Shown: positions 10,526 to 50,137 of the stretch, piece after piece
Layout: each line of letters opens with the position of its first letter
Position numbering within the stretch: position 1 is the first letter of the stretch
Assembly (NCBI GenBank): GCA_964611435.1
Contig: CAZSXT010000002.1
Location: 64,308 to 128,307 of the forward strand
Length of the DNA: 64,000 bases
Reading direction: 5' to 3'
Origin: an uncultured Rhodospirillaceae bacterium
Lineage (GTDB): Bacteria; Pseudomonadota; Alphaproteobacteria; Rhodospirillales; UBA2165
The notes under the pieces: model-generated
Told to the model about the DNA's origin: nothing
Seen by the model: only the letters and a program-made list of their open reading frames with translations
The model's database searches: none
Program-made: the position numbers and the translations under genes

Positions 10526-10529
10526 GCGG

Positions 10530-12909: not shown

Positions 12910-12965
12910 CAAGGAAATCGAATACCGGGTAACATTTGTTCAACTATTATACAGAGGAGGACTCC

Positions 12966-15122: not shown

Positions 15123-15207
15123 CTCTCGAGGCTAGATCAAGGAATAGAACATTTCAAGAACATTTGCCGGCGTTTTGCCCCCCGTTCCTCATGCTATAGT
15201 CCGGGCC

Positions 15208-16475: not shown

Positions 16476-16489
16476 GGCCGGGCCCCCAG

Positions 16490-27190: not shown

Positions 27191-28321
27191 ATGTCCGACG
27201 AATTACTCTTAGTGGGCAGCATTCCGCTGGACACGCCCGAGGAAGTGTTTACCGCGTTCGGGCCGGGTCTCGGCGAATGGCTGGCCTATCTACCCGACGG
27301 CGAAATCGGCGACCGGCGCTATTGGATCGATGGCATCGCGCATCGGGTATTGAACGGTCACCGTGAGATGGAGACCATTCGCTATCCCGACGCCGACGCG
27401 AACGGGGTCGAGACTTGGCGGCCCCAGGGCAACCACGATCAGTATCAGTTCACCGTAAAGGCCGGGATCGATAAGGTCCGGTTCGGCGATCCAGGCTGGC
27501 GGCTCGGCTACACCCGCGACGCCATCAACTCTTATTACGTCTTCCGGCATTTAAAAGAGCAGGGCAAGATACCGGCCCACGTACGTTTCCAAGTCTGCAT
27601 CCCCCTCACCTATTCCTGTCTGGCAAGTTTTATCCCCGATCCGGACGATCTGGAAAAAGTTGCGCCCGGATTTACAGAGGCCCTGACCGCCGAGGTGACC
27701 GAGATGATCCGTCATATTCCAGCCTCCGAACTCGCCATTCAATGGGACATGGCCATCGAAAACCGGCTGATCGAAAACAAGCTGAAAGACGGCGACCAGA
27801 CGGGCGCCGAGGCGGAAGCCGCACGCGTGGCGAAACCGGCCGCCGACATTTGTGCGGCGATCCCGGCGGACGTCGCGCTCGGCTATCATTCCTGTTACGG
27901 CACCCTCGACGGCTGGCCCAGCCGGCAGCCACCCGACGCCATGGGCACGGTGTTGTTGCTGAATGCCGTAGTGGCGGCCAGCGGACGGCAGGTGGATTTC
28001 GTCCACTTCCCCACCCTGGATGCAGCGGATGAAACCTTTTTCAAACCGTTTGAACGGTTTGAACTGGCCGGCGCCAGGGCCTATGTGGGCGCGATCCATC
28101 ACCTGCACGGCGAAGGGGGCCTTCGCGATCAAATCACCAGCATCAAAAAGCACCTGCCAGAATTTGGTCTGGCCGCGCCTTGCGGCTTTGGGCGCGCGCC
28201 GGAACGGCCAGGCCGGCTGCTCACCGACAGCGGCAATGATGCGCCACCCGACTATATCCAAGTGATCCTGGACGACCACGCGGCAGCGGTTGATGTCCTC
28301 CGGGACGTGATGGCAGGCTAG
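27191..28321 (+). CDS. hypothetical protein, possibly MetE/UROD-like TIM-barrel
   Basis: 376 aa with a GGAGGA RBS. Weak resemblance to cobalamin-independent methionine-synthase-like proteins (IQWD..., LGYHSCYG, APCGFGR could be the Zn-ligand His/Cys positions). The functional call is low confidence. Confidence 0.45.
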   Translation: MSDELLLVGSIPLDTPEEVFTAFGPGLGEWLAYLPDGEIGDRRYWIDGIAHRVLNGHREMETIRYPDADANGVETWRPQGNHDQYQFTVKAGIDKVRFGDPGWRLGYTRDAINSYYVFRHLKEQGKIPAHVRFQVCIPLTYSCLASFIPDPDDLEKVAPGFTEALTAEVTEMIRHIPASELAIQWDMAIENRLIENKLKDGDQTGAEAEAARVAKPAADICAAIPADVALGYHSCYGTLDGWPSRQPPDAMGTVLLLNAVVAASGRQVDFVHFPTLDAADETFFKPFERFELAGARAYVGAIHHLHGEGGLRDQITSIKKHLPEFGLAAPCGFGRAPERPGRLLTDSGNDAPPDYIQVILDDHAAAVDVLRDVMAG

Positions 28322-28340: not shown

Positions 28341-29183
28341 ATGATGGAAGTCATTCCCCTGACCAAGCATATCGGTGCGGAGATCAAGGACCTGGATCTT
28401 TCCCAGCCGCTCTCTGATGAGACCGTGGAACAACTCAATCAGGCATGGCTGGATCATCTGGTCCTGCTGTTCCGGGGTCAGAAGCTCAGCCAGGAAGATC
28501 AACTTCGCGTCACGGCCGCGTTCGGCGAGGTGGGCGAACTGGGCCGTCCGGCGGAGTTTTTTCCAAAAGGCTATGAAAAGCTGCTGCCCAACATCATGTT
28601 GATCAGCAATATCCGGGAGAACGGAGAGCCCATCGGCGCCCTGCCGGACGGGGAAATGATGTTCCATCACGACATGCTGCACCGGGAACTGCCGCACAAG
28701 GGGACATTCCTCTACGCCCACGAAATCCCCAGTCATGGGGGCAACACACTCTTCGCCAGCGGCTATGCGGCGTACGAGTCCCTGCCAGACGATATCCGTG
28801 AACCTTTGGAAGGCCGGAAGGCGCACCACCATTATCACTATGGCTCCACCCAAAAGGGCGACGGCAAAGGCACGCCGGCCTCGGCGGCCTCCGTGCATCC
28901 GGTGTTCCGCACCCACGAAGACACCGGCCGCAAGGCGATCTACGTGAACCGGCTGATGACCGAGGGCATCGTGGACATGGATACGGATGAATCCGGCCGG
29001 CTGCTGAACGCGGTCTATGACCACGCCGAAAAGCCGGAATTCGTCTACGAGCATGTCTGGCAGGTGGGCGACCTGATCCTGTGGGACAATCGCTGTTCCA
29101 TGCATGCGCGGACAGATTTTCCAGAGACCGAGCGCCGTCTGATGCACCGGACCACCGTGCGCGGTACATCGATTCCGTTCTAG
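28341..29183 (+). CDS. TauD/TfdA-family Fe(II)/2-oxoglutarate dioxygenase
   Basis: 280 aa with an HHD facial-triad motif (MMFHHDMLH), a distal CSMHAR and RRLMHRTTV. Confidence 0.85.
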   Translation: MMEVIPLTKHIGAEIKDLDLSQPLSDETVEQLNQAWLDHLVLLFRGQKLSQEDQLRVTAAFGEVGELGRPAEFFPKGYEKLLPNIMLISNIRENGEPIGALPDGEMMFHHDMLHRELPHKGTFLYAHEIPSHGGNTLFASGYAAYESLPDDIREPLEGRKAHHHYHYGSTQKGDGKGTPASAASVHPVFRTHEDTGRKAIYVNRLMTEGIVDMDTDESGRLLNAVYDHAEKPEFVYEHVWQVGDLILWDNRCSMHARTDFPETERRLMHRTTVRGTSIPF

Positions 29184-29259: not shown

Positions 29260-30168
29260 ATGGCCTTTAAGAAAACCAAAGTGGAAGTGAACAATGCGGT
29301 CTTTTCTCTGCCCTACTATGTGGCGCGGGACGAAGGCTATTTCGCAGAGGAAGGCATCGAAGTGGAATTGGTGCGCGCCGGCTCCGGCCGCGACCGGGAC
29401 TTGGATGTGCCGGACAAACCGATCGAAGATCACACGATGGTGGAATCCTATGGCTGGCACCGGGGCATCGAGGAAGGCGAGTTCTCTCTGTATCGCGCTT
29501 GTGAATGGGGCCAAATCCGCCGCACCCAAGACAGCGTCAAGGACGCCAGGGTGATTTCCAAGCGCGCCGCCGTCGCCACCCAAGCGATCATCGTGACGCC
29601 GGATTCGCCGGTGAACATCCCGGCCGATCTAAAGAACAAGACCGTCGCGGTGAACTTCCACGCCGGCTCCCACTATGTGACTTTGGGCCTCTTGGGCGGC
29701 TATCTGAAGCGGGATGAAATCCGCGCAGTACATGTGGGCGGACCGAAGCAACGCTTTGACGCCATCACCAACGGCACCGTCGATGCTGCGGCCGTCATGG
29801 AGCCCTGGGTCACCGTCGCCGAAAAGCTCGGCTACAAGGTGATCGCCGAGGCCTATTACGACGGCGCCGAAGTGGGTACTCCGTCGCTCGATCCGGAGGC
29901 CTATGCGGCCATCGACCGGGCGATCAAGAAGGCGGTCAAGAAAATCAACGAGGATAAGACGCCGTATCTGCACTATCTCTGTGAGGAAGTGCCGGCCGAG
30001 ATCTGCACAATCACGCCGGAAGACCTGCACACGCCGCGTCTTCGCTATATCGAGCCGCGCCCGTATACGGAAGAGGAATACCAGTACATCTATGACTGGA
30101 TGACTGAGTGGAACCTTCTTGATACGGAAAGCGTCTACGACAAGATCATCGACGCGAAGATCGCTTAG
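29260..30168 (+). CDS. NMT1/THI5-like (periplasmic-binding-protein fold) protein without signal peptide
   Basis: 302 aa with an AGGAGG RBS. It has NitT/TauT-type SBP-like sequence, but the N-terminus MAFKKTKVEVNNAVFSLPYYV has no hydrophobic leader. Confidence 0.7.
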   Translation: MAFKKTKVEVNNAVFSLPYYVARDEGYFAEEGIEVELVRAGSGRDRDLDVPDKPIEDHTMVESYGWHRGIEEGEFSLYRACEWGQIRRTQDSVKDARVISKRAAVATQAIIVTPDSPVNIPADLKNKTVAVNFHAGSHYVTLGLLGGYLKRDEIRAVHVGGPKQRFDAITNGTVDAAAVMEPWVTVAEKLGYKVIAEAYYDGAEVGTPSLDPEAYAAIDRAIKKAVKKINEDKTPYLHYLCEEVPAEICTITPEDLHTPRLRYIEPRPYTEEEYQYIYDWMTEWNLLDTESVYDKIIDAKIA

Positions 30169-30183
30169 GTCTCAATTTTCATA

Positions 30184-30439
30184 GTCATGCGCGGACCTGC
30201 CTGCGCGGAGCTGGAGCTTCGCTTCGGCGTAGGCAGGCCGGCGCGGGTATCACCCACGTCGTGATCCGCGTACCCACCTTACTCTGCGTCATCCCCGACT
30301 CGCGAAGCGATTGTCGGGGAACCATACTGAGCAAGCCATGGACCCCCGAGACTTGACCTCAATTCTCATTGAGCCCAAATCGGGGGCGACGCATCAAAAA
30401 AATTAAAAAATGGATACGCGGGACAAGCCCGCACATGAC
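30184..30439. repeat. 256-bp palindromic intergenic element with imperfect terminal inverted repeats
   Basis: gtcatgcgcgg (30184-30194) against ccgcacatgac (30429-30439) is a 10/11 match, extendable to about 25 bp. There are internal hairpins cctgcctgcgc...gcgtaggcagg (about 30196-30239) and tccccgac...gtcgggga (30291-30320). Confidence 0.5.
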
Positions 30440-30451
30440 GCTGCAGTAAGG

Positions 30452-32788
30452 TTACCCTCCACCACCCCTCTGCATTGCCTGCCAAATATGGTGCGGCGTG
30501 GCCGGCATATTGATGTGGGTCACGCCGTAGTCTTTTAGGGCATCCACAATGGCGCTGATGAACGCCGCCGGAGAGCCGGTGGTGCCGCCTTCCCCGCCGG
30601 CCTTGACGCCCAGGGGATTGGTCGGCGACGGCACTTCGTTGAGCGCCACTTTGAAATCCGGCACATCGCCGGCCCGCAGCATCCCGTAATCCATCAACGA
30701 GCCCGACAGCGTCTGGCCGGTGTGATCATCGATCACGCACGCCTCCACCATGGCTTGGCCCAATCCCTGGACCACTGCGCCATGGGTCTGGCCATGGACG
30801 ATCAGCGGATTAATCGCCCGGCCCACATCATCCACCGCGGCGTAGCGGACCAGCTCCACCCCACCGGTTTCCGGGTCCACCTCCACTTCGCAGATATGCG
30901 CGCCATTGGGAAACACCGGCGTGTGCATTTCGTTGGCGCGCTTCACGTAAAGCCCGTCCGAGAGTGCTTCGGGCAAGTCCACCCCCTCCAACTCCTTCGC
31001 CAATTGGAACCAGCCGATTGATTTATCTGTGCCCTTCACCGTGAAGCTCCCGTCGGCGAACTCGATGTCGCCGGCCGACGCCTCCAGCACATGCCCCGCC
31101 AGTTGCCGGCCTTTCTCGATCAGTTCATCGGCCGCGAGCACAATCACCGTCCCCGCCATGCGCATGGACCGGCCGGAGTGAGAGCCGCCGCCAACCTTCA
31201 CCACATCCGTGTCGCCGAGCACGATCTGCACTTGATCCAAAGGCAGGCCCAACCACTCCGCTGCAACCTGGGCGAAGCTGGTTTCGTGGCCTTGGCCCGA
31301 TGGCTGGGTGCCGATCACCACATCCACCCGGTCGTCCGGAGTCACGGTGATTTCTGTCTGTTCGATGGGACTGCCGATGGACGATTCCACATAGGTGATA
31401 AAGCCGACGCCCAGCAGCTTGCCCCGCGCCTTGGCCTCGGCCCGGCGGGCCTCCACATCCCCCCAGCCGGCAAGCTTCTTGGCGATGTCGAGGTTCTCCG
31501 CATAATGGCCGCTGTCGTAATCCATGCCGATGGGATTGCGGTAGGGCATCTCGGCCTCGGTCACTAGGTTTTGCCGGCGCAACTCCTGCGGATCGCGGCC
31601 CAGTTCCCGGGCCGCCTGTTCCACCAGCCGTTCGATGGCGAAGGTGACCTCGGGCCGGCCCGAACTGCGATAGGCCTGGGTGGGCACCGTGTTGGTAAAC
31701 ACCGCGCGGGATCGGATCATGCCGGCGGATATCCGGTAGTTGCCGCTGATCAACTGTGAGCCCTTGGCGATGGGCGAGAACGACACCGCGCGCGCGCCCA
31801 CGTTGGAGATATTGTCGGCGCGGACGGCGAGGAAATTGCCCTCGGCGTCCAACGCGAGTTCCAACGTCGAATGCAGATCCCGGCCCTGGTAATCACTGAT
31901 GAAGGCTTCCGACCGGTCACAGGTGTATTTCACCGGCCGGCCGATTTTCTTCGAGGCCCAGGCGGCCAAGGGAAATTCCACATAGACCCGGTTGCGGGTG
32001 CCGAAGTTGCCGCCCACGTCATAAGAGAATATCCGCACATCCTCGGGTTCCATGCCCAAGACCTCGGCAATTTCCCGCTTTTGCCGGACAGAACCGCCGC
32101 TGCCGGCGTACAGGGTATAGCGCCCCGACTCCGCATCATAATTGGCCAGCACCGCGCGAGGCTCCATGGGTACGCCGGTGACCCGGCCGATATGCACCGT
32201 CGACTTAACGACGTGCGTGGCGGCGGCGAAGGCAGCTTCGGTTCCGGCAATATCGCCGAAAGTGCTGTCGATACAGACATTCCCCGGCAGTTCGTCCCAC
32301 ACCGGCGGCTGTTCGGTCTCGGCGGCCGCAAAGGTATCGGTGTTGTAGGGCAGCACCTCGTACTCGACGGAGATGGCTTCCGCCGCGTCCAAGGCCTGCC
32401 CCCGGTTTTCGGCAATGACGCAGGCCACCGCCTCGCCCACATGGCGCACCTTGTCCGCCGGGAGAGGCATATGGGGTCCGATAAATACGTCACTGTCGCC
32501 GGGACCCCGCAATTTTAGATCATGATCGGTCTTGGGCAGCGGGCTATGGGGGATCGGTCTCAGCCCGTCCGCCGCGCAGTCTGCGCCGGTGAACACACCC
32601 AGTACACCAGGTAGGGCAGCCGCACCCGCCGTCTCGATTTTGACGATCCGAGCATGAGGATGAGGGGAGCGGATCATCGCCATATAGGCCTGACCGGGGG
32701 CGGAAAAATCATCAGTGAACCGGCCCTTGCCGGTCAGCAGGCGCTGATCCTCCTTGCGGCGGAGAGGCTGTCCAATCGGCTTATTCAC
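30452..32788 (-). CDS. xanthine-dehydrogenase-family molybdopterin-binding large subunit (CoxL form-II-like)
   Basis: 778 aa beginning MNKPIGQPLRRKEDQRLLTGKGRFTDD. The active-site loop is TQAYRSSGRPE, not the AYxCSFR of true CODH. Confidence 0.9.
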   Translation of the reverse strand: MNKPIGQPLRRKEDQRLLTGKGRFTDDFSAPGQAYMAMIRSPHPHARIVKIETAGAAALPGVLGVFTGADCAADGLRPIPHSPLPKTDHDLKLRGPGDSDVFIGPHMPLPADKVRHVGEAVACVIAENRGQALDAAEAISVEYEVLPYNTDTFAAAETEQPPVWDELPGNVCIDSTFGDIAGTEAAFAAATHVVKSTVHIGRVTGVPMEPRAVLANYDAESGRYTLYAGSGGSVRQKREIAEVLGMEPEDVRIFSYDVGGNFGTRNRVYVEFPLAAWASKKIGRPVKYTCDRSEAFISDYQGRDLHSTLELALDAEGNFLAVRADNISNVGARAVSFSPIAKGSQLISGNYRISAGMIRSRAVFTNTVPTQAYRSSGRPEVTFAIERLVEQAARELGRDPQELRRQNLVTEAEMPYRNPIGMDYDSGHYAENLDIAKKLAGWGDVEARRAEAKARGKLLGVGFITYVESSIGSPIEQTEITVTPDDRVDVVIGTQPSGQGHETSFAQVAAEWLGLPLDQVQIVLGDTDVVKVGGGSHSGRSMRMAGTVIVLAADELIEKGRQLAGHVLEASAGDIEFADGSFTVKGTDKSIGWFQLAKELEGVDLPEALSDGLYVKRANEMHTPVFPNGAHICEVEVDPETGGVELVRYAAVDDVGRAINPLIVHGQTHGAVVQGLGQAMVEACVIDDHTGQTLSGSLMDYGMLRAGDVPDFKVALNEVPSPTNPLGVKAGGEGGTTGSPAAFISAIVDALKDYGVTHINMPATPHHIWQAMQRGGGG

Positions 32789-32793
32789 GGGGT

Positions 32794-34428
32794 CTATTTG
32801 ATCACGTTGCGGACCGGGGTGTTGGGCTTGATCCCCTTGTGCCGCATCTGTTCAGAGCGTTTGCCGTTCTCCAGATAGTCGCCGGCCACGGCGCGGGCCG
32901 CCAAGTTGTCCCACTCGTCGGTCCAGTCGCCTAGGGAATAGCCGTGCCACGGGCTTTCCGGCGTCAGCGTGCCGAGGCCCAGTTTCTCCCAGAGGTCCTT
33001 GGCGTGCTCCATGAATTCTTTCTTGGGCAGGGCCAGGGGTGCGGTCTCGTGCTTCAGGGTCGCGTCCACCAGCATGGTGCCGTCGGTGCTTTTATCGCCG
33101 CCCTTGGGCCCGTGCCCGCCGTCCCGGTTTGGCAGGATGACGATATCCGTGCTCGGGTTGGCCCGGTAGGCCATGGACCAAAACACCGCGTCGCCGTTGT
33201 TGGGATCGATATCCTCGTTCACCGCCATCACATACTTGCCGCAATCGGCCCGGAGCGTGGAGGCACCGTAAAGCGCCCGCCATACCTCGGTCTTTGGCAC
33301 GCCGGGCTCCATCACGATAAAGATCACCCGGCGGATATTGGTCAGCGGCTCGTGCATCACAACGTTTTTGACGCCCTTGATGCCCAGGGTCTGCTGCAGG
33401 TGGGCCAGGAACATCTGCTCATACGCATCCCGCTTGATGGAGCTGGATTCCGACGGGGTCACTTGAGAGATGATGGAAGCGAACATGGCTTTTTGCTTCC
33501 GGGTGATCGCGGTGACATCGAAAATCATATTGAAGTCTTCGAGCGATATATGTCCGTGGGATTCCCCAAACGGCGCTTCCGGCTCCAGATATTCCGTGTC
33601 GATCAGGCCTTCGATGATGATCTCCGAATCCGCCGGCACCATCAGGTCATTGGTCACACATTTGACCATGCGGATCGGCTCCCCGGCCAGACCGCCAGCC
33701 ACCCCCATCTCATCAACGCCCAGGGGCACTTTCTGCGGGCCCGTATAGGCCACGGTGGGGGGACAGCCGAGAACGCAGACGCAGGGCATCTTCTCCCCCC
33801 GCGCCTGATACTTAAGCCAATGGGGATAGCCACCGGCGCCGCCGGCCCTTGTCGCCATTCGAACGCCCAACCGATTTGAAGCTTTGAGCCCACCCCGGTA
33901 GGTGCCGAAGTTCTGCACCCCCGTGTCCGGATCGCGCGTAACAAAATTGCCGGCCGTAATATAAGGCGCGACATCAAAGCCCGGCGTGGAGATCGGCACC
34001 GGCAGGGCATCCAATCCCTTGCCGTCGCCGATTAAATCGTCGCCCTGCAGGATCACTTCCTGACAGGCCGCCTCGGTCACTTCCACCGGATCAATGGGCT
34101 GGGACATGGCGCGCCGCCAAATCTCCCCAACGCCCGCCGCATCCACATTAAGCCCGGTGCGGTAAATTTCCCGGCTGCCGGCCAACGCGCCGACCACCAC
34201 CGGCATGTCATACTTTCTGCCCTTGGAATCGACCACATTCGTGAAAACAAAGGCTCGGCGGTTCTCTTCCGGCACACCGCCCCGGTATTGCCAGCGCACC
34301 AGGGGATGCATCTCGGTATCTTTATTGATTTCGGAATCGATGCGCTGAACCAGCCCGGCCTTTTCCAGATTGGCGAGGTGATCCTGAAAATCCGCGTAAC
34401 CGCGTTTGGTGGGGGCCTTGGCGTCCAT
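32794..34428 (-). CDS. UbiD-family (prenyl-FMN-dependent) decarboxylase, paralog 1
   Basis: 544 aa with EINKDTEMHPLVRWQYRGG and LEPEAPFGESHGH. The stop lies 5 nt before the Mo-subunit start. Confidence 0.9.
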   Translation of the reverse strand: MDAKAPTKRGYADFQDHLANLEKAGLVQRIDSEINKDTEMHPLVRWQYRGGVPEENRRAFVFTNVVDSKGRKYDMPVVVGALAGSREIYRTGLNVDAAGVGEIWRRAMSQPIDPVEVTEAACQEVILQGDDLIGDGKGLDALPVPISTPGFDVAPYITAGNFVTRDPDTGVQNFGTYRGGLKASNRLGVRMATRAGGAGGYPHWLKYQARGEKMPCVCVLGCPPTVAYTGPQKVPLGVDEMGVAGGLAGEPIRMVKCVTNDLMVPADSEIIIEGLIDTEYLEPEAPFGESHGHISLEDFNMIFDVTAITRKQKAMFASIISQVTPSESSSIKRDAYEQMFLAHLQQTLGIKGVKNVVMHEPLTNIRRVIFIVMEPGVPKTEVWRALYGASTLRADCGKYVMAVNEDIDPNNGDAVFWSMAYRANPSTDIVILPNRDGGHGPKGGDKSTDGTMLVDATLKHETAPLALPKKEFMEHAKDLWEKLGLGTLTPESPWHGYSLGDWTDEWDNLAARAVAGDYLENGKRSEQMRHKGIKPNTPVRNVIK

Positions 34429-34432
34429 AAGA

Positions 34433-34547
34433 AATATGGTATCCGGGAAAATGGACCGGATAAAGGCCGCCGGAGCGGTTTCAATGGCCGGCCAGATAGG
34501 TATTTCGAGGCGCCGGGGAATATGGTTCTATCGGGGAAAATATCCGG
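34433..34547. promoter_or_regulatory. repeated operator-like motif in the divergent promoter region
   Basis: Perfect inverted repeat TATCCGG-N9-CCGGATA (34440-34462). A direct repeat of aatatggt(-/tct)atc(c/g)gggaaaat occurs at about 34433 and about 34519, and a third TATCCGG lies at 34541-34547. Confidence 0.4.
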
Positions 34548-34577
34548 CGCAGACCAGACCATAGGGAGCCTTCACAA

Positions 34578-36377
34578 ATGTCCGATCCGATCAGCTACGG
34601 CAGCATGAGATATCCGGAAACCCCGGTGAACCTGCCGGCCAATCAGTCCAAGGCGGAATATGGATCCGACGTCATGGCCGACACGCTGCGCAATATGGGT
34701 TTCAAGCATGTGTTTGTGCTGCCCGGCTCCAGTTTTCGCGGGCTGCATGACTCGCTAGTGAACCATAATAGAAACCAAGGTCCGGAAATGATCATGGGCA
34801 GCCACGAGGCGGTGGTCGTTTCCATGGCCCATGGTTATGCAAAGGCGGCGGGCGAAACCTCCCTGGCGCTCATTCATGATCTGGTTGGGCTGATGACCGG
34901 CACGGTCAGCGTCTATAATATCTGGTGCGACCGGACGCCGGTGCTGATCCTGGGCGGCAGCGGTCCGTTTGATCCAGCACAGCGCCGCCCCATCGATTGG
35001 ACCCACACCGCCAGCATGCAGAGCGATCTGGTCAAACCGTTCTGCAAGTGGACGGACGAACCGTTAACCCTACAGTCGTCGGTGGATTCCCTGCTGAAAG
35101 CCAATAAGATTGCCGGCACGGCGCCGAAAGGCCCGGCCTACATCTGTCTGGATCAGGTCATCCAAGAAGGCGGCATCCCGGATGATCTGGTGCAGCCCGA
35201 TGCCGGCGTTGCCCGGTATCAACCCGCCCCGCCCATGGCGCCCAACCCGGATGCTCTCAACGAAGCTGTCGAATTACTGGTAAACGCAGAGATGCCGCTG
35301 ATCACCGCCGGCCGGTTGGGCCGGGAACGGCGCTCCCGCGAACCGCTGATCGAGCTTGCCGAATTAACCGGCGCGGCCTGTAACGATGACCGTCATCTGG
35401 TCGCCTTCCCCACTGCCCATCCGCAGAACCTCAATAGCGATCATGACATAAAGGCCGAGGCCGACGTGATCCTGGCGCTGGATTGCGTCGATCCCACCAA
35501 CGCCTATGACGGGCACGTAAAAGGGGTGCGCGGCAAAGATGGCCAGACCGTGATCGAAATGAGCCTGGAGCACACGGTCAATGACAGCTGGTCCCATTTC
35601 GGCGGACCGGTGGCGGCGGTTGATCTGCAGATCGATTGCGACCCGAACCTGGGCCTGGACCATTTGAACGCCGCGCTGAAAACACGGATCGACGGCGACG
35701 ACGCCTTGCAACAGAAAATTGCGGCGCGTAAGGACGCATTGGGCGAGCGGCACGCCAAGCTGCGGGAGGCGCAACATGAGCGTTGGCAGGAAAGCTGGGA
35801 CTCGTCCCCCATCGCCACTGGCCGCATGGTGCATGAACTGTATCAAGCAGTGAAGGACAAGCCCTGGACCATGGTGCTGCGCAACAACCGGAGCTTCCCG
35901 GAAGGCTGTTGGGATTTTGCCGGCGCGGGAGATTTCCTGGGCGGCGACGGCGGCGGCGGCGTGGGCTACGGTCCAGGAGGCTCCATCGGTGCGGCTCTGG
36001 CGCTCCGGGAACAAGGGCGTTTCCCGGTCAGCATCACTGGCGACGGTGATTTCCTGATGGGTGCGGGCGCGCTCTGGACGGCCGCTCACTATCAAATTCC
36101 GCTGTTGCTGGTGATCAATAACAACAATAGCTGGGGCAATGACGAGCACCACCAAATCCGCGTCGCCAACAAACGCAACCGGCCACCGGAAAACGCCTGG
36201 ATCGGCCAGCGCATGGCCGAGCCCACCATCGACTACGCGACCGTCGCACGGGGCTACGGCGCCTGGGCGGAAGGCCCGGTGGATCATCCGGCGGAGCTGG
36301 CGGGCGTGTTCAAGCGCGCCGTCGCCGAAGTGGATAAGGGCAACGTCGCCATCGTCGATGTCAGGACGGTGCTCTAG
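34578..36377 (+). CDS. thiamine diphosphate-dependent enzyme (decarboxylase/carboligase class)
   Basis: 599 aa with GSHEAVVVSMAHGYA (catalytic Glu) and GDGDFLM...NNNSWGN (ThDP motif). Confidence 0.85.
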   Translation: MSDPISYGSMRYPETPVNLPANQSKAEYGSDVMADTLRNMGFKHVFVLPGSSFRGLHDSLVNHNRNQGPEMIMGSHEAVVVSMAHGYAKAAGETSLALIHDLVGLMTGTVSVYNIWCDRTPVLILGGSGPFDPAQRRPIDWTHTASMQSDLVKPFCKWTDEPLTLQSSVDSLLKANKIAGTAPKGPAYICLDQVIQEGGIPDDLVQPDAGVARYQPAPPMAPNPDALNEAVELLVNAEMPLITAGRLGRERRSREPLIELAELTGAACNDDRHLVAFPTAHPQNLNSDHDIKAEADVILALDCVDPTNAYDGHVKGVRGKDGQTVIEMSLEHTVNDSWSHFGGPVAAVDLQIDCDPNLGLDHLNAALKTRIDGDDALQQKIAARKDALGERHAKLREAQHERWQESWDSSPIATGRMVHELYQAVKDKPWTMVLRNNRSFPEGCWDFAGAGDFLGGDGGGGVGYGPGGSIGAALALREQGRFPVSITGDGDFLMGAGALWTAAHYQIPLLLVINNNNSWGNDEHHQIRVANKRNRPPENAWIGQRMAEPTIDYATVARGYGAWAEGPVDHPAELAGVFKRAVAEVDKGNVAIVDVRTVL

Positions 36378-36381
36378 TCCC

Positions 36382-38028
36382 ATGGCCAGGAAATCCTCAA
36401 AGAAGCGAAGCTACAATAATCTGCCCGAACATCTGGCGGCGTTGCGCAAAGCCGGCCTGTTGATGGAGGTCGATCGGGAGATCAACAAAGACACAGAGAT
36501 GCATCCCTTGGTCCGCTGGCAGTACCGGGGCGGCATGTCGGAAGCCGAACGCAAGGCCTGGCTGTTCACCAACGTGGTCGATAGCAAGGGCCGTAAATTC
36601 GATATGCCGGTGGTGCTGTGTGCGCTGGCCGGCAGCCCGTCCATCTATGAGGTCGGGTTCGGCTCATCGCTGGACCAGATTACCGACCGCTGGATCAAGG
36701 CGATCAAAGACCCGCTCGAACCCAACGAGATCGCGCCTGATGACGCGCCGTGTCAGGAAGTCGTCTATCAGGGCAAGGACCTTACGACGGGCCACGGGCT
36801 GGATGACCTGCCGATCCCCATCTCCACACCCGGATGGGATAACGCACCCTATACGTCCGCATCACACTTCATCACCAAAGACCCGGAGACCGGCGTTCAA
36901 AATGTCGGCACCTATCGCGGTCAGGTAAAAGCGCCGGACCGGCTGGGCATGAACACCTCGACCGAACTTCGCACCGGTGGCTACATCAACTGGCTCGCCT
37001 GGAAAGAACGGGGCGAGCGCATGCCCTGCGCCGTTGTCATCGGCTGCCCGCCAGTCGTATCGTACGCTTCTGTCCAAAAAGTGCCCGAGGGCATCGACGA
37101 GATCGCCGTCGCGGGTGCGCTGGTGGGCGAACCCATCGATGTTGTTCCGGCCAAAACCGTGGACCTGATGGTCCCGGCGGAAGCAGAAGTGGTGATCGAA
37201 GGCTATGTGGACACCGAGTTTCTGGAACCGGAAGCACCCTTCGGCGAATCCCATGGGCACGTAAACCTACAGGAGTATAACGGGTTCATGGACGTCACTG
37301 CCATTACCCGGAAGGAAAAGGCCATCATCACGTCGTGGGTGAGCCAGGTCGCGCCCAGCGAATCCAGCGTGATCCGCCGTTTTGCCTACGAGGCCCGCAA
37401 TCTGGCGTACCTCCGAGACACGATGGGCATCAAACAGGTGATCACGGTGAAGGCCCACGAGCCGCTGACATCGCTGCATCGGGTGCACGCTATCGTGTTC
37501 GAGCACGGCGCCACCCAAACCGAGGTTTGGCGGGCGCTGTATGGATTATCGGGCTATCGGCAGTCGGAAGGCAAATGGATCATCGCGGTGAACGAGGATA
37601 TCGACGGCTCGAACGCGGACGCGCTGTTCTGGGCCATGGCCTACCGCTGCAAGCCTCAGCATGATGTGCAGATCCTGAAACATCAGGACGCCGGCCACGG
37701 CCCTCGCAGCATGGTCGATCCCGAAGACGCATCGGTACTGGTGGATGCTACATTGAAAGAGACCTATCCGCCGATTTCCCTGCCGAAGCGGGAGTTCATG
37801 GAGCGGGCCGCCGAAATTTGGAAAGAATTAGGCCTGCCCGAACTTTCACCCCAAGCGCCCTGGTACGGCTATGACCTGGGCGAATGGACCGAAGAGTTTG
37901 AACAGATGGCCGAGCGGGCGGTGAACAGCGACTATTGGCAGACCGGCAAGATCATCGCGCAACGGCGGCGCAGCGACGTTCCCATGAACACCGAGGTGCG
38001 CACGGTCGACGGTAAAGACGACGAGTAG
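36382..38028 (+). CDS. UbiD-family decarboxylase, paralog 2
   Basis: The ATG at 36382 lies 4 nt after the ThDP-enzyme stop. The 548-aa protein is colinear with paralog 1. The first 81 codons of the 629-aa track ORF overlap the ThDP gene and were rejected. Confidence 0.9.
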   Translation: MARKSSKKRSYNNLPEHLAALRKAGLLMEVDREINKDTEMHPLVRWQYRGGMSEAERKAWLFTNVVDSKGRKFDMPVVLCALAGSPSIYEVGFGSSLDQITDRWIKAIKDPLEPNEIAPDDAPCQEVVYQGKDLTTGHGLDDLPIPISTPGWDNAPYTSASHFITKDPETGVQNVGTYRGQVKAPDRLGMNTSTELRTGGYINWLAWKERGERMPCAVVIGCPPVVSYASVQKVPEGIDEIAVAGALVGEPIDVVPAKTVDLMVPAEAEVVIEGYVDTEFLEPEAPFGESHGHVNLQEYNGFMDVTAITRKEKAIITSWVSQVAPSESSVIRRFAYEARNLAYLRDTMGIKQVITVKAHEPLTSLHRVHAIVFEHGATQTEVWRALYGLSGYRQSEGKWIIAVNEDIDGSNADALFWAMAYRCKPQHDVQILKHQDAGHGPRSMVDPEDASVLVDATLKETYPPISLPKREFMERAAEIWKELGLPELSPQAPWYGYDLGEWTEEFEQMAERAVNSDYWQTGKIIAQRRRSDVPMNTEVRTVDGKDDE

Positions 38029-38030
38029 GC

Positions 38031-39254
38031 TTACTCGGCGGCGGCCGGCTCGACCTTCCACTTGGAGGAAAAAACCGCGACCGGATCGGGAAAGCCCTTC
38101 ATTTCCCGGGCGCCCCGATTTTCGAACTTCATGGCCTTGCCGCGGCAGATTGACGCAACAACTTCGGACACCATGACCTCGCCGGTAGAGGCGATGGCGC
38201 AGATGCGGGCCGCCATCTGAACGGCGGAACCAAAGATATCATCTTCTTCCCGGACGGGTTCACCGGCGTTGATGCCGATCCTGACCCCCATCGGGTCTTC
38301 CTTGCGGGCCAGATTAAAATTTTCGACGCCGCGCTGGATCGCGTTGGCCGCCTCGACCGAGTTAGTCACCCCATCGAAGGACGCCATGATGCCGTAGCCG
38401 AGATGTTTGATTTCCTTGCCGCTGAACCGGGTAATGGCGGCGCGAACGATCCGATTGTGGGCGCGGAGAATTTCCTGCGCCTCTGCATCGCCAGCCTTCT
38501 GGGTTAGCTCCGTATAGCCCATGATTTCCGTAAACATGATGGCGATGGTTTCAGCCTCACTGGCGCCCGAGGCTTTTTCCTCTTTCTTGTTCCACTCCTT
38601 CAATGCTTCAATCAGCATACCCGGCGCGGAGCTATCGCCATTGAGTTGAGCCTGCATGGCGTCCCGGCCCTTTTCGATCATCGACATGTATTTGGGCACG
38701 CGAAAATAATCGTCGTAATCTTCGACAAACTTTTCTGCCTGCGGCGGTTTGGCGCCGACGATTTCCATGGAGGCCCGGATAATCTGCTTGATCTCGCCTT
38801 CTTCCAGATCTTCATCCGTGCCGATCACATCGCTGGCGCCTGTGGCGAACAATACCGAACCGAACTTGTTGAACATGTCCATTTTCACGTTCGCTCCATG
38901 CACCGAAGAGACGCAATCCTGCATGAAGTCGAGAACCGTCTGCTGAACTTTCACCGCCGCAGGTGAAAGCGGAAATTTTTCTCCCGACGGGATATCTTCC
39001 GAGGAATCCGTCTCGTCGGGCGCTTCCTGCTCCTCCTGTTGCTGGCGCAGGCGCTCTTGCTGGCGCTTGTATGCCGCCATTTGATGGGGGGTCAGCATTG
39101 GACCGTCGAGCGTTTGTTTCCAACGCTCTTTCTCTTCGGACTCGAAATCTTCGGCCCGGAGCTGCCCAGTCAGCAGCTTCAACAGACCCACGAACAGCCC
39201 ACCGCTGGAAACAACGGTCGGTCTACTTGGTCGCTGTGAGGATCCATTACTCAT
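38031..39254 (-). CDS. class III nucleotidyl-cyclase homology domain protein with substituted catalytic residues
   Basis: The C-terminal CHD is IAIMFTEIMGYT...IKHLGYGIMASF...RIGINAGEPV...FGSAVQMAARI. The roughly 240-aa N-terminal region was not recognised. The start is 39254 or 39314. Confidence 0.75.
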   Translation of the reverse strand: MSNGSSQRPSRPTVVSSGGLFVGLLKLLTGQLRAEDFESEEKERWKQTLDGPMLTPHQMAAYKRQQERLRQQQEEQEAPDETDSSEDIPSGEKFPLSPAAVKVQQTVLDFMQDCVSSVHGANVKMDMFNKFGSVLFATGASDVIGTDEDLEEGEIKQIIRASMEIVGAKPPQAEKFVEDYDDYFRVPKYMSMIEKGRDAMQAQLNGDSSAPGMLIEALKEWNKKEEKASGASEAETIAIMFTEIMGYTELTQKAGDAEAQEILRAHNRIVRAAITRFSGKEIKHLGYGIMASFDGVTNSVEAANAIQRGVENFNLARKEDPMGVRIGINAGEPVREEDDIFGSAVQMAARICAIASTGEVMVSEVVASICRGKAMKFENRGAREMKGFPDPVAVFSSKWKVEPAAAE

Positions 39255-39369
39255 CACACGGCTATTCCCTAGTGCACCCCGGTTCGGATCGAGAAAATTC
39301 CAATACCCCACCACTGCACAAATGCCGGTCTTTGCGACCGATTATTCTTGTCTTGCCGTCAAAATTGTC

Positions 39370-39686: not shown

Positions 39687-41903
39687 ATGTTTTTCAGGTC
39701 CAAGAATAAAGACCGGCCGTTCCATTGGGGGCCCTATCCCCTGGAGCGCTTGCCGCACGACGCCAACATCACCGATATCGAGTCGAACAAGCCGCCGGTG
39801 GCGAAACCGGCCGTTCCGCCGGTCCCGGCAGATAACCCTTTTGCCATGGCGGTCGACAAATACGCTAAAATTTTCCGTGAACAGGGCAAGGTCGATCCCT
39901 TGCCGCCGAAAGCGCCGGTGCCGGACGATCTTGCGCGCCGGACCCAGGACATCAAGGGCGCCGGCTATTTCCTGGACGCTTCCCAGATGGGAATCTGTAA
40001 ACTGCCCGCGAACGCCTGGTATGCCGGAGAAACCGCGACAGACCATGACCACGCCATCGTCATCATGGTGGCCCATGGCCGGACCCCTGAAGACGACAAC
40101 CTGGCCCACAAGTGGGTAAAGGGGCAGGAAGGGATCGGCGGACGGCTCCGCGCTCTGGAAATCGCCATTGCCATCGGCGAACATATTCAGTGGATGGGAT
40201 ATTCCGCCCGAGCCCACGATCCGGAAACCGGTCAGGTGGATATGGATCGGCTATCTGTGCTGGCTGGTCTCGGCATCCGGTCGGGCGACAAAATCGTGAA
40301 CCCTTATTTGGACGACAAATTTGAACTGGCCGTGGTCACCACGAACTATGCGTTGGCGATTGACACTCCGCTTTCGAATCGCGCCCGCAACGCCAAGGGT
40401 TTCGGCTATATGATCGGCGCCGGTGGCGCGGTGCCGGGTCTGGAGTGGAGCCGCCGCGCCGGCCGCAAAACCCATATGAGCAACTACCCGCTGGAACAGG
40501 TGAAAAGAGTCGATGAACCAACGACCCTAATCTTCGAAGACGAAGTGCCCAAGGTTTCCAAACGGGCCGAGTTTTTCGAGCGAGCCGCCCGGGGCGATAT
40601 GGGTCAAAAATCCCAGTTGGAGCGTTCCCGGTTTTCCTTCAAACACCCGTTCGCCCAGGCCATGGTCAGCCTGATCAAGTGCATGGTTCCGGAACAGGGT
40701 GGAGACACAGCCCCCGTGGCGCCAGGTTACGACGACGCCGAGGCCAATACCAAAGCGATCAAATCGTTATCCTACTATCTCGGCTCGGAGATGACCGGCA
40801 TTTGCGAAATACCCGGCTACGCCTGGTATTCGCATCGCAAGGACGGCTCCGAGATTAAGCCTTACAACAAATACGCAATCGTCATGTTGATCGACCAGGG
40901 CTATGAGACCATGGAAGGCGCATCCGGGGATGACTATATTTCCGGCGCCCAGTCCATGCGGGCCTATATGCGCGGTGCAGAGATCGCCGGCATCATGGGC
41001 GAATTGTTCCGTTCCCTCGGATACTATTCCCGGTCACAGACCAATGCGGATTCCGAGGTCCTGCACCCGCCGCTTGCCCTGGTCGCCGGGTTGGGAGAGC
41101 TAAGCCGGATTGGCGAGGTGATTCTGAACCCGTTTATCGGCCCACGGTTGAAAACCGTGGTGCTCACCACCGACATCCCTCTGGTGCCGGACAAACCGAT
41201 GGACTTCGGCCTCCAATATTTCTGCTCCAACTGCTGGAAATGCGCCCGGGAATGCCCGTGTGACGCCATATCCTGGGGCGATAAGGTGATCTTCAACGGT
41301 TACGAAATGTGGAAACCGGATGTGGAACGGTGCACTCGCTACCGGCTGACCAATCCCAAGGGACTGGCTTGCGGCCGCTGCATGAAAACCTGTCCTCTGA
41401 ACAAGGTGGTCACTTGGGAAGGGCCGATTGCGACGCGGGTCGCCTCTTGGTTCGGGGTGAATGTCCGCTGGCTTAAACCGCTTTTGGTGCCCATTGCCGT
41501 CAAACTGGATGATGCCCTCGGCCACGGGGTGCGCAATCCGGTTAAGAAATGGTGGCTGGACATGGAAATTGTCGATGGCAAGTGCATTGATCCGCCCAAA
41601 GGCGTCAATCAGCGCGACCTCAACCTTGATCACAAACTCGATCCGGCGGATCAAAAAATGGCCTATTACCATGCGGACGTTATGCCGCCGCCTGATGCGG
41701 GCGATCCTGTGCCAGTGGACCGAAAGGCGGCCTTGAAGGCGAAGGAATTGCTGGAATCTCCTGCCGAAGCGCTGGCCCGCCGTGCGGCTGGTAAACCCAA
41801 GCCGGGACATTATAATCCGACGCCGGCTCTGGGCACCGGGATGGATGTGGAACATGCGTCCGCCAACGCCATCTGGGACAAACCTCGGGGCCGGGAAAAC
41901 TAA
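39687..41903 (+). CDS. reductive-dehalogenase-like protein (RdhA/QueG superfamily, 2x[4Fe-4S]), cytoplasmic
   Basis: 738 aa with a GGGAGAG RBS. It has CSNCWKCARECPCDA plus a split C-x12-CGRCMKTCP motif. There is no Tat or Sec leader. Confidence 0.5.
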   Translation: MFFRSKNKDRPFHWGPYPLERLPHDANITDIESNKPPVAKPAVPPVPADNPFAMAVDKYAKIFREQGKVDPLPPKAPVPDDLARRTQDIKGAGYFLDASQMGICKLPANAWYAGETATDHDHAIVIMVAHGRTPEDDNLAHKWVKGQEGIGGRLRALEIAIAIGEHIQWMGYSARAHDPETGQVDMDRLSVLAGLGIRSGDKIVNPYLDDKFELAVVTTNYALAIDTPLSNRARNAKGFGYMIGAGGAVPGLEWSRRAGRKTHMSNYPLEQVKRVDEPTTLIFEDEVPKVSKRAEFFERAARGDMGQKSQLERSRFSFKHPFAQAMVSLIKCMVPEQGGDTAPVAPGYDDAEANTKAIKSLSYYLGSEMTGICEIPGYAWYSHRKDGSEIKPYNKYAIVMLIDQGYETMEGASGDDYISGAQSMRAYMRGAEIAGIMGELFRSLGYYSRSQTNADSEVLHPPLALVAGLGELSRIGEVILNPFIGPRLKTVVLTTDIPLVPDKPMDFGLQYFCSNCWKCARECPCDAISWGDKVIFNGYEMWKPDVERCTRYRLTNPKGLACGRCMKTCPLNKVVTWEGPIATRVASWFGVNVRWLKPLLVPIAVKLDDALGHGVRNPVKKWWLDMEIVDGKCIDPPKGVNQRDLNLDHKLDPADQKMAYYHADVMPPPDAGDPVPVDRKAALKAKELLESPAEALARRAAGKPKPGHYNPTPALGTGMDVEHASANAIWDKPRGREN

Positions 41904-50127: not shown

Positions 50128-50137
50128 TCCTGTCTCC

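Follow-up and report, generated by a model that had tools for sequence, protein, structure and literature searches.

A divergent four-gene locus with two UbiD paralogs

We analyzed a 64-kb stretch of DNA (64,000 nucleotides; hereafter, the window) from an uncultured Rhodospirillaceae bacterium (assembly GCA_964611435.1, contig CAZSXT010000002.1, positions 64,308 to 128,307 of the forward strand), scanning its non-overlapping open reading frames (ORFs) of at least 90 amino acids (aa) with Pfam profiles. The subject of this analysis is a cluster of four long genes encoding two UbiD-family proteins, a molybdenum (Mo)-pterin subunit and a thiamine diphosphate (ThDP)-dependent enzyme, here called UbiD1, UbiD2, MoL and the ThDP enzyme:

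30452 to 32788, minus strand: MoL, Mo-pterin large subunit of the xanthine dehydrogenase (XDH)/CoxL family (778 aa, GTG start)
32794 to 34428, minus strand: UbiD1, UbiD-family protein of the prenylated flavin mononucleotide (prFMN) type (544 aa), first gene of the predicted UbiD1-MoL operon
34578 to 36377, plus strand: ThDP-dependent enzyme (599 aa), first gene of the predicted ThDP-UbiD2 operon
36382 to 38028, plus strand: UbiD2, UbiD-family decarboxylase (548 aa)

The stop codon of UbiD1 is separated from the start of MoL by 5 nt (TAG ACCCC GTG), and that of the ThDP gene from the start of UbiD2 by 4 nt (TAG TCCC ATG), so that the members of each pair look translationally coupled; the UbiD1 and ThDP genes diverge from a 149-bp spacer, and the layout as a whole looks like two divergent operons. 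The longest ORF in the UbiD2 frame begins at 36139, and the ATG at 36382 is the start that is colinear with UbiD1. A preliminary description of the window, made from its letters, had named the four genes with their coordinates, lengths and spacings, all of which were borne out by the ORF reading, and its four family assignments held in the Pfam search. Because the ORFs are long and the profile scores very strong, chance is not an issue for the four-gene cluster.

Both UbiD proteins keep five invariant residues of the family

UbiD1 exceeded the Pfam cut-offs for all three UbiD domains (UbiD_N, 27.3 bits vs 24.3; UbiD, 166.2 vs 23.3; UbiD_C, 46.5 vs 24.2); in UbiD2 the UbiD and UbiD_C domains passed (177.6 and 34.3 bits) and UbiD_N, at 23.8 bits, lay just under its cut-off of 24.3. 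The core domain was matched with E-values of 7e-49 and 2e-52 in the two proteins. A full-length alignment of the paralogs gave 56% identity, in agreement with the earlier estimate by eye that they are colinear from end to end, and all four sequence blocks that had been quoted as shared occur in both. The best solved relative of each is HmfF, at ~28% identity. An AlphaFold model of UbiD1, with a mean predicted local distance difference test score (pLDDT) of 80.2, was matched by Foldseek to HmfF (6h6x; E 4e-31, template modelling score 0.76), followed among the top matches by E. coli UbiD, AroY, HudA and Fdc1 (E 4e-31 to 1e-26); the predicted structure thus confirmed a UbiD fold.

All 101 family sequences compared, 88 from the UbiD1 clade and 13 from the UbiD2 clade, share five residues without exception (N173, R178, E240, E284 and E289), two of which are matched in the alignment with E. 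coli UbiD (N173 with N175, E240 with E241). From Fdc1 and UbiD we take the invariant residues to be metal and phosphate ligands, the catalytic Arg and the Glu...Glu pair (E-x4-E). Because the residues aligned with the ligands are kept, together with the catalytic Arg and the two Glu, UbiD1 and UbiD2 both look catalytically competent and would be active decarboxylases. An insertion of 3-4 residues makes the alignment ambiguous in the loop where the canonical metal-binding His would be expected, and the residue there is R194 in UbiD1 and Glu in the UbiD2 clade. H203, which is present in 99 of the 101 sequences and is Asn in UbiD2 (GGYINW) and in its 81% identical orthologue in the relative L095 described below, may stand in for the canonical His. 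Two changes, R190N and R194E, are specific to the UbiD2 clade and lie in a loop near the predicted cofactor site.

None of the four cluster proteins reached an equivalog cut-off in NCBIfam. The canonical UbiD model NF008175 has a cut-off of 788 bits, of which UbiD1 reached 146 and UbiD2 126.5; this rules out a ubiquinone-type UbiD identity. The VdcC equivalog gave 139 bits against 650. Scores for the alpha (TIGR02723) and beta (TIGR02724) subunits of phenylphosphate carboxylase were 120 and 101 bits against 565, and 87 and 78 bits against 469, respectively; the analogy to phenylphosphate carboxylase raised in the preliminary description fails on the score of the alpha model.

MoL and the ThDP enzyme belong to known superfamilies but match no characterized equivalog

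By its domain content MoL is a large subunit of an XDH/CoxL-family Mo hydroxylase, the Pfam domains Ald_Xan_dh_C, MoCoBD_1 and MoCoBD_2 being matched with 91, 229 and 247 bits (E 8e-26 to 3e-73). Its best solved matches, at 376-471 bits, share this three-domain architecture and include CoxL (8uem, 471 bits), 6-hydroxypseudooxynicotine dehydrogenase (7dqx) and quinoline 2-oxidoreductase (1t3q); archaeal glyceraldehyde oxidoreductase is also among the closest solved relatives. The alignment with CoxL bore out the earlier observation that MoL has AYRSSGR in the active-site loop, at the position of AYACSFR in CoxL. This AYRxxGR-type loop, in place of the AYxCSFR of CO dehydrogenase, is shared with the group of form II CoxL proteins and the quinoline and pseudooxynicotine enzymes. 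MoL differs from that group in remaining under every equivalog cut-off and in being encoded directly behind a UbiD gene without coxS or coxM. Against the CO dehydrogenase model TIGR02416, MoL scored 463 bits with a cut-off of 991, and this score together with the AYRSSGR loop rules out a form I CO dehydrogenase. The Glu of a C-terminal GGEGG motif aligns with the GIGES region of CoxL that contains the catalytic Glu, and we presume that it has the same role in MoL.

The ThDP enzyme passed the Pfam cut-offs for TPP_enzyme_N (71.5 bits) and TPP_enzyme_C (79.1 bits), its middle domain reaching 21.2 bits against a cut-off of 30.4, and its sequence contains the ThDP motif TGDGDF...NNNN and a GSHEA motif whose HE includes the catalytic Glu. 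These features place the predicted product in the superfamily of benzoylformate decarboxylase, benzaldehyde lyase and acetolactate synthase. Among solved structures it is closest to benzaldehyde lyase, 2-hydroxyacyl-CoA lyase and benzoylformate decarboxylase (E 1e-27 to 1e-23), the solved benzoylformate decarboxylases matching at only E ~1e-18 to 1e-23. The best NCBIfam model, PRK08327, gave 233 bits against a cut-off of 456, and the benzoylformate decarboxylase equivalog NF005485 gave 133 bits against 493.

A large UbiD clade with recurrent XDH-family neighbors

Both UbiD proteins fall in a distinct clade of ~545-560 aa that carries a conserved C-terminal extension of ~85 residues (PWHGYSLGDW...) and, as far as we found, has no characterized member. 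The UbiD1 protein is also encoded on long contigs of estuarine and marine metagenomes, with a 98% identical copy in a metagenome-assembled genome of the Rhodospirillaceae, and a protein search returned thousands of matches to metagenomic proteins at 60-85% identity that are named only 'UbiD family decarboxylase'. When species-representative genomes were searched with two clade-specific peptide patterns, at least 600 stretches matched and at least 591 of the matched loci encode a clade relative, mostly in Alphaproteobacteria (Rhodospirillales and Hyphomicrobiales) and also in some Beta- and Gammaproteobacteria and Acidobacteriota.

With tblastn and ORF clustering we then compared 84 loci, of which 80 come from genomes and three from plasmids, the remaining one being the window itself. 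Individual loci are referred to by number (L009 and so on) where they have to be told apart. A large subunit of the XDH family lies within 10 kb of the UbiD gene in 49 of the 84 loci, UbiX in 24 and a ThDP enzyme in 20; the MoL gene is directly downstream of UbiD in 10 loci and diverges from it within ~400 bp in 6 more. Other recurrent neighbors by Pfam are CoxM, CoxS, TctC, TctA-TctB, DUF2390/TIGR02444, TauD and flavin mononucleotide (FMN)-dependent 2-hydroxy-acid dehydrogenase (FMN_dh), as well as the carboxymuconolactone decarboxylase family (CMD), Amidohydro_2, FAD_binding_3 ring hydroxylases, cupins, amidases and isochorismatase. The clade thus recurrently adjoins XDH/CoxL subunits, UbiX, ThDP enzymes, tripartite tricarboxylate transporters and ring-processing enzymes. 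These sets of neighbors differ between subclades, so a single function for the whole clade is unlikely.

A neighbor-joining tree of the 101 sequences separates the UbiD2 clade (n = 13) from the UbiD1 clade (n = 88). UbiD2-type genes stand in tandem with UbiD1-type genes in ~10 loci, a co-occurrence that is biased upward by the choice of census loci with a UbiD1 query. Five loci (L009, L010, L012, L019 and L024; ~7.5-15 kb each) hold arrays of 3-4 UbiD paralogs that mix the two types. FMN_dh lies directly upstream of a ThDP gene beside the array in L010, L019 and L024; L012 has the ThDP gene only and L009 neither. In such arrays the paralogs may be subunits of one enzyme or may decarboxylate polycarboxylated substrates one step after another.

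The DUF2390/TIGR02444 protein (~170-190 aa) recurs beside UbiX and UbiD in two UbiD subfamilies (L087, 17491-17988; L089, 15426-15992; cluster c6 in L012, L036, L055, L056, L074 and L082) and was not found in the window by tblastn. It could be an unrecognized accessory of the prFMN system. A PhdC-type prFMN maturase was ruled out, PhdC being an HpaC-like flavin reductase.

Close relatives keep UbiD1 and MoL together and shuffle the other genes

In every close relative (UbiD1 78-86% identical), MoL directly follows UbiD1. The arrangements, with percent identity to the window proteins in brackets, are:

L095, leftward run: Amidohydro_2, a second Mo-pterin subunit (MoL2), CoxS, CoxM, UbiD3 and UbiD2 (81%), all transcribed leftward from UbiD2
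L095, other arm, divergent from the first: UbiD1 (86%), then MoL (75%), with a convergent binding-fold protein gene (83%); no ThDP gene
L096: ThDP gene (72%) 3 kb upstream of UbiD1 (78%), then MoL (69%); flavin adenine dinucleotide (FAD) ring hydroxylase genes nearby
L097 and L102: UbiD1 (80%), then MoL (72%), an insertion sequence (IS) element and a binding-fold protein gene (83%)
L097 and L102, continued: a class II aldolase-family gene, UbiD2 (76%) and an FAD monooxygenase gene

The MoL orthologues are 69-75% identical across L095-L097, and in L095 the UbiD2 orthologue is divergent from UbiD1, as in the window. The UbiD2, ThDP and binding-fold orthologues each reappear within 9 kb in some of these relatives. 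The invariant core is thus UbiD1 followed by MoL, with UbiD2, the binding-fold protein and the ThDP enzyme recurring in shuffled positions. The association of the genes is real and goes beyond chance, and the functional linkage of the four that had been supposed from their layout is supported by this constant UbiD1-MoL pair and its recurring companions. Conservation of the exact four-gene layout, in contrast, was not found: it occurs in none of the 83 other census loci and in none of L095-L097, L101 and L102, because the ThDP gene comes and goes. That gene is absent from L095 and its homologues elsewhere have low identity, so the role of the ThDP enzyme may be peripheral or variable.

After the L095 cluster (14086-18839) come genes with AllH, AllF-N/Ligase_CoA and AllG domains and an amino-acid-kinase-family gene. 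We take AllH, AllF and AllG to represent the oxamate/oxalurate branch of allantoin breakdown, and the kinase-family gene presumably encodes carbamate kinase; their position may reflect N-heterocycle catabolism or coincidence.

More distant copies are carried by cultured bacteria. By tblastn, plasmid copies of ~60% identity occur in Sinorhizobium fredii (including NGR234), S. meliloti LMB1, Neorhizobium petrolearium, Phyllobacterium zundukense and Rhizobium jaguaris, and a 53% copy in Paraburkholderia caribensis. In the plasmid clusters of N. petrolearium and S. meliloti LMB1 (L087 and L088), one arm reads CoxM-CoxS-CoxG-solute-binding protein-MoL, and the divergent arm UbiD-MoL2-GntR-UbiX-TIGR02444-TctC-ThDP...TctA. 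In Neorhizobium the identities are 59% (MoL), 60% (UbiD), 43% (MoL2) and 36% (ThDP), and the divergent arm ends in TctA-LysR.

Partner genes are missing from the window and present in related clusters

The preliminary description had reported no gene for UbiX or for the [2Fe-2S] or FAD subunit of a Mo hydroxylase within the 64 kb, and two approaches agree with this: the Pfam scan found no UbiX/Flavoprotein, Fer2_2 or FAD_binding_5/CO_deh_flav_C domain among the window ORFs, and a tblastn search of the window with UbiX, CoxS, CoxM and DUF2390 proteins from related loci gave no match at E <= 1e-5. To the right of the window, the adjoining ~9 kb contain only housekeeping genes (ligA, recN, lpxC, ftsZAQ).

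The lack of partners did not hold up as a trait of the system. The homologous clusters L087 and L088 carry genes for CoxM, CoxS, CoxG, UbiX, a GntR regulator and a TctC/TctA transporter, with CoxS and CoxM beside the 59-60% identical MoL orthologue, and CoxM and CoxS are also encoded in the divergent operon of L095, the relative with 86% identical UbiD1. UbiX is present in L087, L088 and L090 among the related loci. CoxS and CoxM are lacking in 12 of the 17 loci with a MoL of at least 44% identity, as judged from the stretch compared around each. Because related clusters encode the partners, their absence is a local feature of the window genome and not of the system. By analogy, the partners of the window cluster would be encoded elsewhere in the genome and act in trans, as we infer.

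Flanking genes and non-coding elements

The surroundings of the cluster had been described as bare of a regulator or transporter gene. No classical transcription regulator adjoins it, as stated, but genes for a binding-fold protein, a dioxygenase, a hypothetical protein and a cyclase do flank it. The flanking genes and the non-coding elements are:

27191 to 28321, plus strand: conserved hypothetical protein (376 aa), first of a three-gene run that ends at the binding-fold gene
28341 to 29183, plus strand: TauD/TfdA-family Fe(II)/2-oxoglutarate dioxygenase (280 aa; Pfam TauD, E 1e-68)
29260 to 30168, plus strand: periplasmic-binding-fold protein of the NMT1/THI5 type (302 aa; Pfam NMT1), convergent on MoL
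30414 to 30436, minus strand: terminator-like hairpin and run of T, 16 nt beyond the MoL stop codon (consensus scan)
34429 to 34577, no strand: divergent intergenic spacer of 149 bp, with the presumed promoters of both operons
38031 to 39314, minus strand: class III adenylate/guanylate cyclase, abutting UbiD2

The binding-fold protein is better conserved than MoL among the close relatives. Its 83% identical orthologues adjoin MoL in L095 (12988-13899), L097 (14043-14957) and L102, and a weaker homologue lies between MoL and CoxG in the rhizobial loci L087 (8343-9278) and L088, where the gene is inside the MoL-CoxG-CoxS-CoxM operon. No leader or signal peptide was found in the window protein, the N-terminus of which reads MAFKKTKVEVNNAVF. 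It is therefore likely, from its sequence, to be a cytoplasmic accessory protein or enzyme of the system rather than part of a transporter; we know of no role for a cytoplasmic protein of this fold that is linked to a Mo hydroxylase.

The window TauD protein scored 184 bits against the 313 of the taurine dioxygenase equivalog and has a 71% identical homologue near the UbiD gene of L037; TauD genes are directly beside a ThDP gene in L030, L031 and L040. It is a possible member of the pathway. The conserved hypothetical protein had no Pfam or NCBIfam match. Soil and marine bacteria contain 2746 homologues of ~60% identity, none of the 120 listed having a functional name. Its model (pLDDT 86) is a triosephosphate isomerase (TIM) barrel that Foldseek matched to cobalamin-independent methionine synthase (E 1e-6) and uroporphyrinogen decarboxylase; H233, C235 and C331 are invariant, and H233-x-C235 with C331 suggests a zinc site of the MetE type. 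In another genome, a homologue adjoins a paralog with a faint Meth_synt_2 match and an Opp-type transporter, with no UbiD gene, and the link of this protein to the cluster is weak.

The spacer contains a two-copy direct repeat, AATATGGT..GGGGAAAAT, at 34433-34452 and 34519-34541. One repeat unit directly adjoins the start of UbiD1, and the second precedes that of the ThDP gene by ~40 nt (AATATGGTATCCGGGAAAAT and AATATGGTTCTATCGGGGAAAAT); the repeat could be an operator or a product of chance. A consensus scan found no sigma-70-like promoter in the 149 bp. The hairpin downstream of MoL is a probable end of the UbiD1-MoL transcript, although it is weak evidence because such sites are not above their number in shuffled sequence.

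A second class III cyclase, with a CHASE2 sensor, is encoded at 59420-61555 (plus strand), and a cyclase gene (1004-2158) lies near the ThDP orthologue of the relative L096. At 39687-41903 (plus strand), 1.7 kb from UbiD2 with the cyclase gene between them, is a 738-aa full-length homologue of NpRdhA, the B12-dependent, oxygen-tolerant catabolic reductive dehalogenase (PDB 4ras, 655 bits), which lies just over the TIGR02486 cut-off (163.8 vs 160.35 bits) and was not seen within 9 kb in L095-L097. NpRdhA prefers ortho-halogenated phenols such as 3,5-dibromo-4-hydroxybenzoate, and its homologue hints at a possible substrate class of the neighboring cluster. A 391-aa bicupin resembling gentisate and 5-aminosalicylate 1,2-dioxygenases (254 bits vs a cut-off of 442) is encoded 11 kb from the cluster (49096-50271, minus strand), and the same part of the window has genes for a glutathione S-transferase (GST; 42953-43768) and a small cupin (44785-45279). 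Together with the dehalogenase homologue, these genes suggest a part of the chromosome that collects aromatic-catabolism genes. Farther away, the stretch 8630-13967 (plus strand) holds a second ThDP enzyme gene (631 aa, over the PRK08266 cut-off), followed by an opposite-strand glutaredoxin/ArsC-like gene and a tripartite ATP-independent periplasmic (TRAP) transporter of the TRAP-associated extracytoplasmic immunogenic (TAXI) type with a fused permease and a binding protein.

Comparison with known UbiD and ThDP pathways

A full-text literature search found no characterized pathway with this four-gene layout, as had been supposed, and turned up only the hmf (furfural/hydroxymethylfurfural, HMF) and lumazine systems as combinations of UbiD with a Mo hydroxylase. 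Catabolic clusters that combine the two are already known.

Xanthine dehydrogenase hydroxylates xanthine at C8. In the lumazine/pterin cluster I of Cupriavidus sp. LA-1 (LuDH, DHLI, XCDC and UbiX), the UbiD-family XCDC decarboxylates xanthine-8-carboxylate to xanthine, and lumazine-type clusters in Streptomyces are reported to carry just the Mo-binding subunit (PMC12391406). Like the window, this system places a UbiD that is distant from the textbook members beside an XDH-family Mo hydroxylase, with prFMN supplied by UbiX, and it serves heteroaromatic catabolism. We made the comparison with a cluster on S. meliloti pSymB (L099; CP140937.1, 1640479-1653538), recognized by gene content, in place of the LA-1 proteins. 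This cluster is annotated only generically in its record and encodes two amidohydrolases, UbiD, UbiX, an NCS2 permease, a GTP-binding protein, the L, S and M subunits of XDH and a deaminase-like amidohydrolase; we read it as lumazine-type because its gene content fits the description for Rhizobiales (PMC12391406). Its 460-aa UbiD is 27% and 29% identical to UbiD1 and UbiD2, which rules out orthology to the lumazine XCDC, and its large subunit is 28% identical to MoL. By Pfam scan, the window is also without the amidohydrolase isomerase, pterin deaminase, CobW-like GTP-binding chaperone and nucleobase permease, and has instead two UbiD paralogs and a ThDP enzyme.

Two sets of candidates were discarded in the course of this comparison. 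Amidohydro_2 neighbors (cluster c24) had been considered as the lumazine isomerase on account of His6/His8 and were dropped, the HxH being generic for the family and the genes single. Other plasmid UbiD contexts checked as lumazine systems proved to be ubiquinone UbiD/UbiX with UbiTUV (anaerobic), hmf, a Streptomyces UbiD/UbiX pair and a hutC-linked UbiD.

The hmf system supplies the best solved relative of the UbiD proteins in both sequence and fold (HmfF, 6h6x), and the cluster on Cupriavidus necator pENH92 combines UbiD, UbiX, a TctC-type binding protein and a Mo hydroxylase. HmfF is, however, only ~28% identical, has 448 aa and lacks the ~85-residue C-terminal extension. The hmf Mo enzyme acts on a CoA thioester with Fe-S and FAD subunits of its own, unlike the lone MoL, and no furoyl-CoA synthetase (CoA ligase), hydratase or glucose-methanol-choline (GMC) oxidase HmfH gene was found in the window by Pfam scan. 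The low HmfF identity and the different partner genes rule out identity with the hmf pathway.

The mandelate pathway (MdlB, MdlC, MdlD) resembles the system in its ThDP enzyme of the benzoylformate decarboxylase/benzaldehyde lyase group, in the FMN_dh genes directly beside ThDP homologues in related loci and in its logic of 2-hydroxy acid to 2-oxo acid, aldehyde and acid. It differs in that the window cluster has no FMN_dh, the aldehyde step would fall to a Mo enzyme in place of a nicotinamide adenine dinucleotide (NAD)-dependent dehydrogenase, and UbiD decarboxylation of the product acid is not part of the mandelate pathway. Phenylphosphate carboxylase likewise has two UbiD paralogs (Ppc alpha and beta) encoded side by side; besides the scores far under the cut-offs, the aerobic context and the other partner genes set the window apart, and no gene for a gamma or delta subunit, a haloacid dehalogenase (HAD)-type phosphatase or phenylphosphate synthase was found beside the cluster.

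On a Paracoccus pantotrophus plasmid (L089; NZ_CP058692.1), a different UbiD subfamily of ~443 aa occurs in the order hutC-UbiD-UbiX-racemase-FAD/2Fe-2S oxidoreductases-TIGR02444, with a divergent arm encoding an NAD-aldehyde dehydrogenase, a ThDP enzyme and an ATP-binding cassette (ABC) transporter. The same UbiD type is found on S. meliloti pSymA beside hutC, and its pathway appears, as far as we found, to be likewise without characterization.

Proposed function and alternatives

The genes very probably form a catabolic module for a (hetero)aromatic acid with active UbiD decarboxylases and a Mo hydroxylase. The best explanation overall, which we regard as reasonably probable, is that this marine or estuarine Rhodospirillaceae neighborhood catabolizes an aromatic or N-heteroaromatic carboxylic acid. 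A specific order of steps, from the ThDP enzyme to the Mo enzyme to UbiD, can be offered only tentatively. The ThDP enzyme would decarboxylate a 2-oxo acid of the aryl-glyoxylate type, which in related loci would be supplied by the FMN-dependent 2-hydroxy-acid dehydrogenase, to an aldehyde. The Mo enzyme would then oxidize the aldehyde to a ring carboxylate, or hydroxylate the ring carbon next to N, handing its electrons on to [2Fe-2S] and FAD subunits whose genes lie outside the window. Finally, UbiD1 and UbiD2 would remove ring-bound carboxyl groups non-oxidatively, using prFMN from a UbiX that is also encoded outside the window. Such a shortening of the side chain had been suggested in the preliminary description and gains indirect support from FMN_dh beside the ThDP gene in L010, L019 and L024, from the TauD genes next to ThDP genes in L030, L031 and L040, and from the Paracoccus plasmid, in which the NAD-aldehyde dehydrogenase takes the place that MoL holds in the window; the variable ThDP gene speaks against it. 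The position of FMN_dh next to the ThDP gene in related loci favors this mandelate-like route.

Several observations weigh against the proposal. UbiX and the electron-transfer subunits were not found within the 64-kb window, the nearest relative (L095) lacks a ThDP gene, and the ThDP homologues of other loci are just 33-48% identical. MoL can be assigned neither to the aldehyde oxidoreductases nor to the ring hydroxylases from its solved relatives, the sets of neighbors vary widely between subclades, and the sequences do not reveal a substrate, the scores for every equivalog model being far below the cut-off.

The foremost competing explanation reverses the order of reactions. UbiD1 and MoL would be a module for N-heteroaromatic acids in which UbiD strips the carboxyl group next to N and the Mo enzyme places a water-derived oxygen there or at a neighboring carbon, with ThDP-UbiD2 as a separate, loosely tied branch. 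It takes the invariant, coupled UbiD-MoL core as its unit and accounts for a ThDP gene that is dispensable in L095; the UbiD that turns xanthine-8-carboxylate into xanthine is a published precedent (PMC12391406), quinoline and nicotine-pathway hydroxylases are among the solved relatives of MoL, and the isochorismatase, amidase, Amidohydro_2 and FAD ring hydroxylase genes of relatives are typical of pyridine-type pathways. No residue-level sign points to a heterocycle rather than an aldehyde as the substrate, though, the reaction order is pure inference, and the ThDP and FMN_dh genes that recur beside UbiD arrays are left unexplained, so that we consider this explanation possible but rather unlikely. 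For the window, the mandelate-like route is slightly preferred, because the ThDP gene is coupled to UbiD2; both could apply. A different use of the two paralogs, as subunits of one hetero-oligomeric and perhaps carboxylating enzyme, had also been entertained and finds some footing in the tandem UbiD1- and UbiD2-clade genes of ~10 loci (including the arrays of 3-4), in the UbiD2 orthologue that diverges from UbiD1 in L095 as in the window, and in the substitutions R190N and R194E, which alter charge, are fixed in the UbiD2 clade and lie close to where the cofactor is predicted to bind. That co-occurrence is inflated by the UbiD1 query, however, and L096 has UbiD1-MoL without UbiD2 within 9 kb; all catalytic residues are present in both paralogs, so neither looks non-catalytic. 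The cut-offs of the phenylphosphate carboxylase models (469-565 bits) are far from being reached at 77-120 bits, genes for phenylphosphate synthase and for the gamma and delta subunits were not found, and an O2-dependent TauD is encoded nearby. A heteromer of this kind is improbable.

Two further explanations are much less probable still. If the four genes were neighbors by accident, as two unrelated operons, the exact layout would be expected to be as inconstant as it is, being found in none of the other loci inspected, and the sets of neighbors as variable; but all four components and the binding-fold protein recur together in relatives at 72-86% identity despite rearrangement, components recur in distant rhizobial plasmids, and an XDH subunit in 49 of 84 loci is far above a rough estimate of the expectation (few such genes per genome; not computed). 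We hold an accidental association to be very unlikely. The chance that the cluster is an orthologue of the lumazine/pterin or furfural/HMF pathway is, if anything, smaller: in both systems a UbiD is combined with an XDH-family enzyme, no solved relative is closer to the UbiD proteins than HmfF, and lumazine-type clusters of Streptomyces are reported to have the Mo-binding subunit alone (PMC12391406), yet identities are 27% and 29% (pSymB UbiD), 28% (pSymB large subunit) and ~28% (HmfF), and the window is without isomerase, deaminase, CobW-like, permease, furoyl-CoA ligase, hydratase and HmfH-like genes.

Implications

Going beyond the aromatic or N-heteroaromatic acid module proposed above, we offer a bolder conjecture, which is unlikely as it stands. 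The ~545-aa UbiD clade, the coupled lone Mo subunit and the cytoplasmic binding-fold protein might define a new and widespread type of pathway in marine and soil Proteobacteria, in which several UbiD enzymes, possibly hetero-oligomeric, serially strip carboxyl groups from polycarboxylated or side-chain-oxidized (hetero)aromatics and the Mo enzyme hydroxylates the vacated position. Candidate substrates would be indole- or hydroxyphenyl-glyoxylate derivatives, pyridine polycarboxylates and halogenated hydroxybenzoates, the last because the NpRdhA homologue is encoded 1.7 kb away. If true, such a pathway would extend UbiD biochemistry by a new class of substrates and a new partnership of enzymes, and would provide a route for the turnover of carboxyl-rich aromatic matter.

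To our knowledge, only a handful of UbiD enzymes have known substrates. Because the clade is large and its Mo-pterin partner reproducible, any function found for it would annotate many genomes at once, and the question is directly testable by genetics because cultured carriers exist (S. fredii NGR234, S. meliloti LMB1, N. petrolearium and P. caribensis). Should heteroaromatic or polycarboxylated aromatic acids prove to be the substrates, the finding would bear on the turnover of these compounds in seawater and soil, and the clade would offer new reversible (de)carboxylases for biocatalysis.

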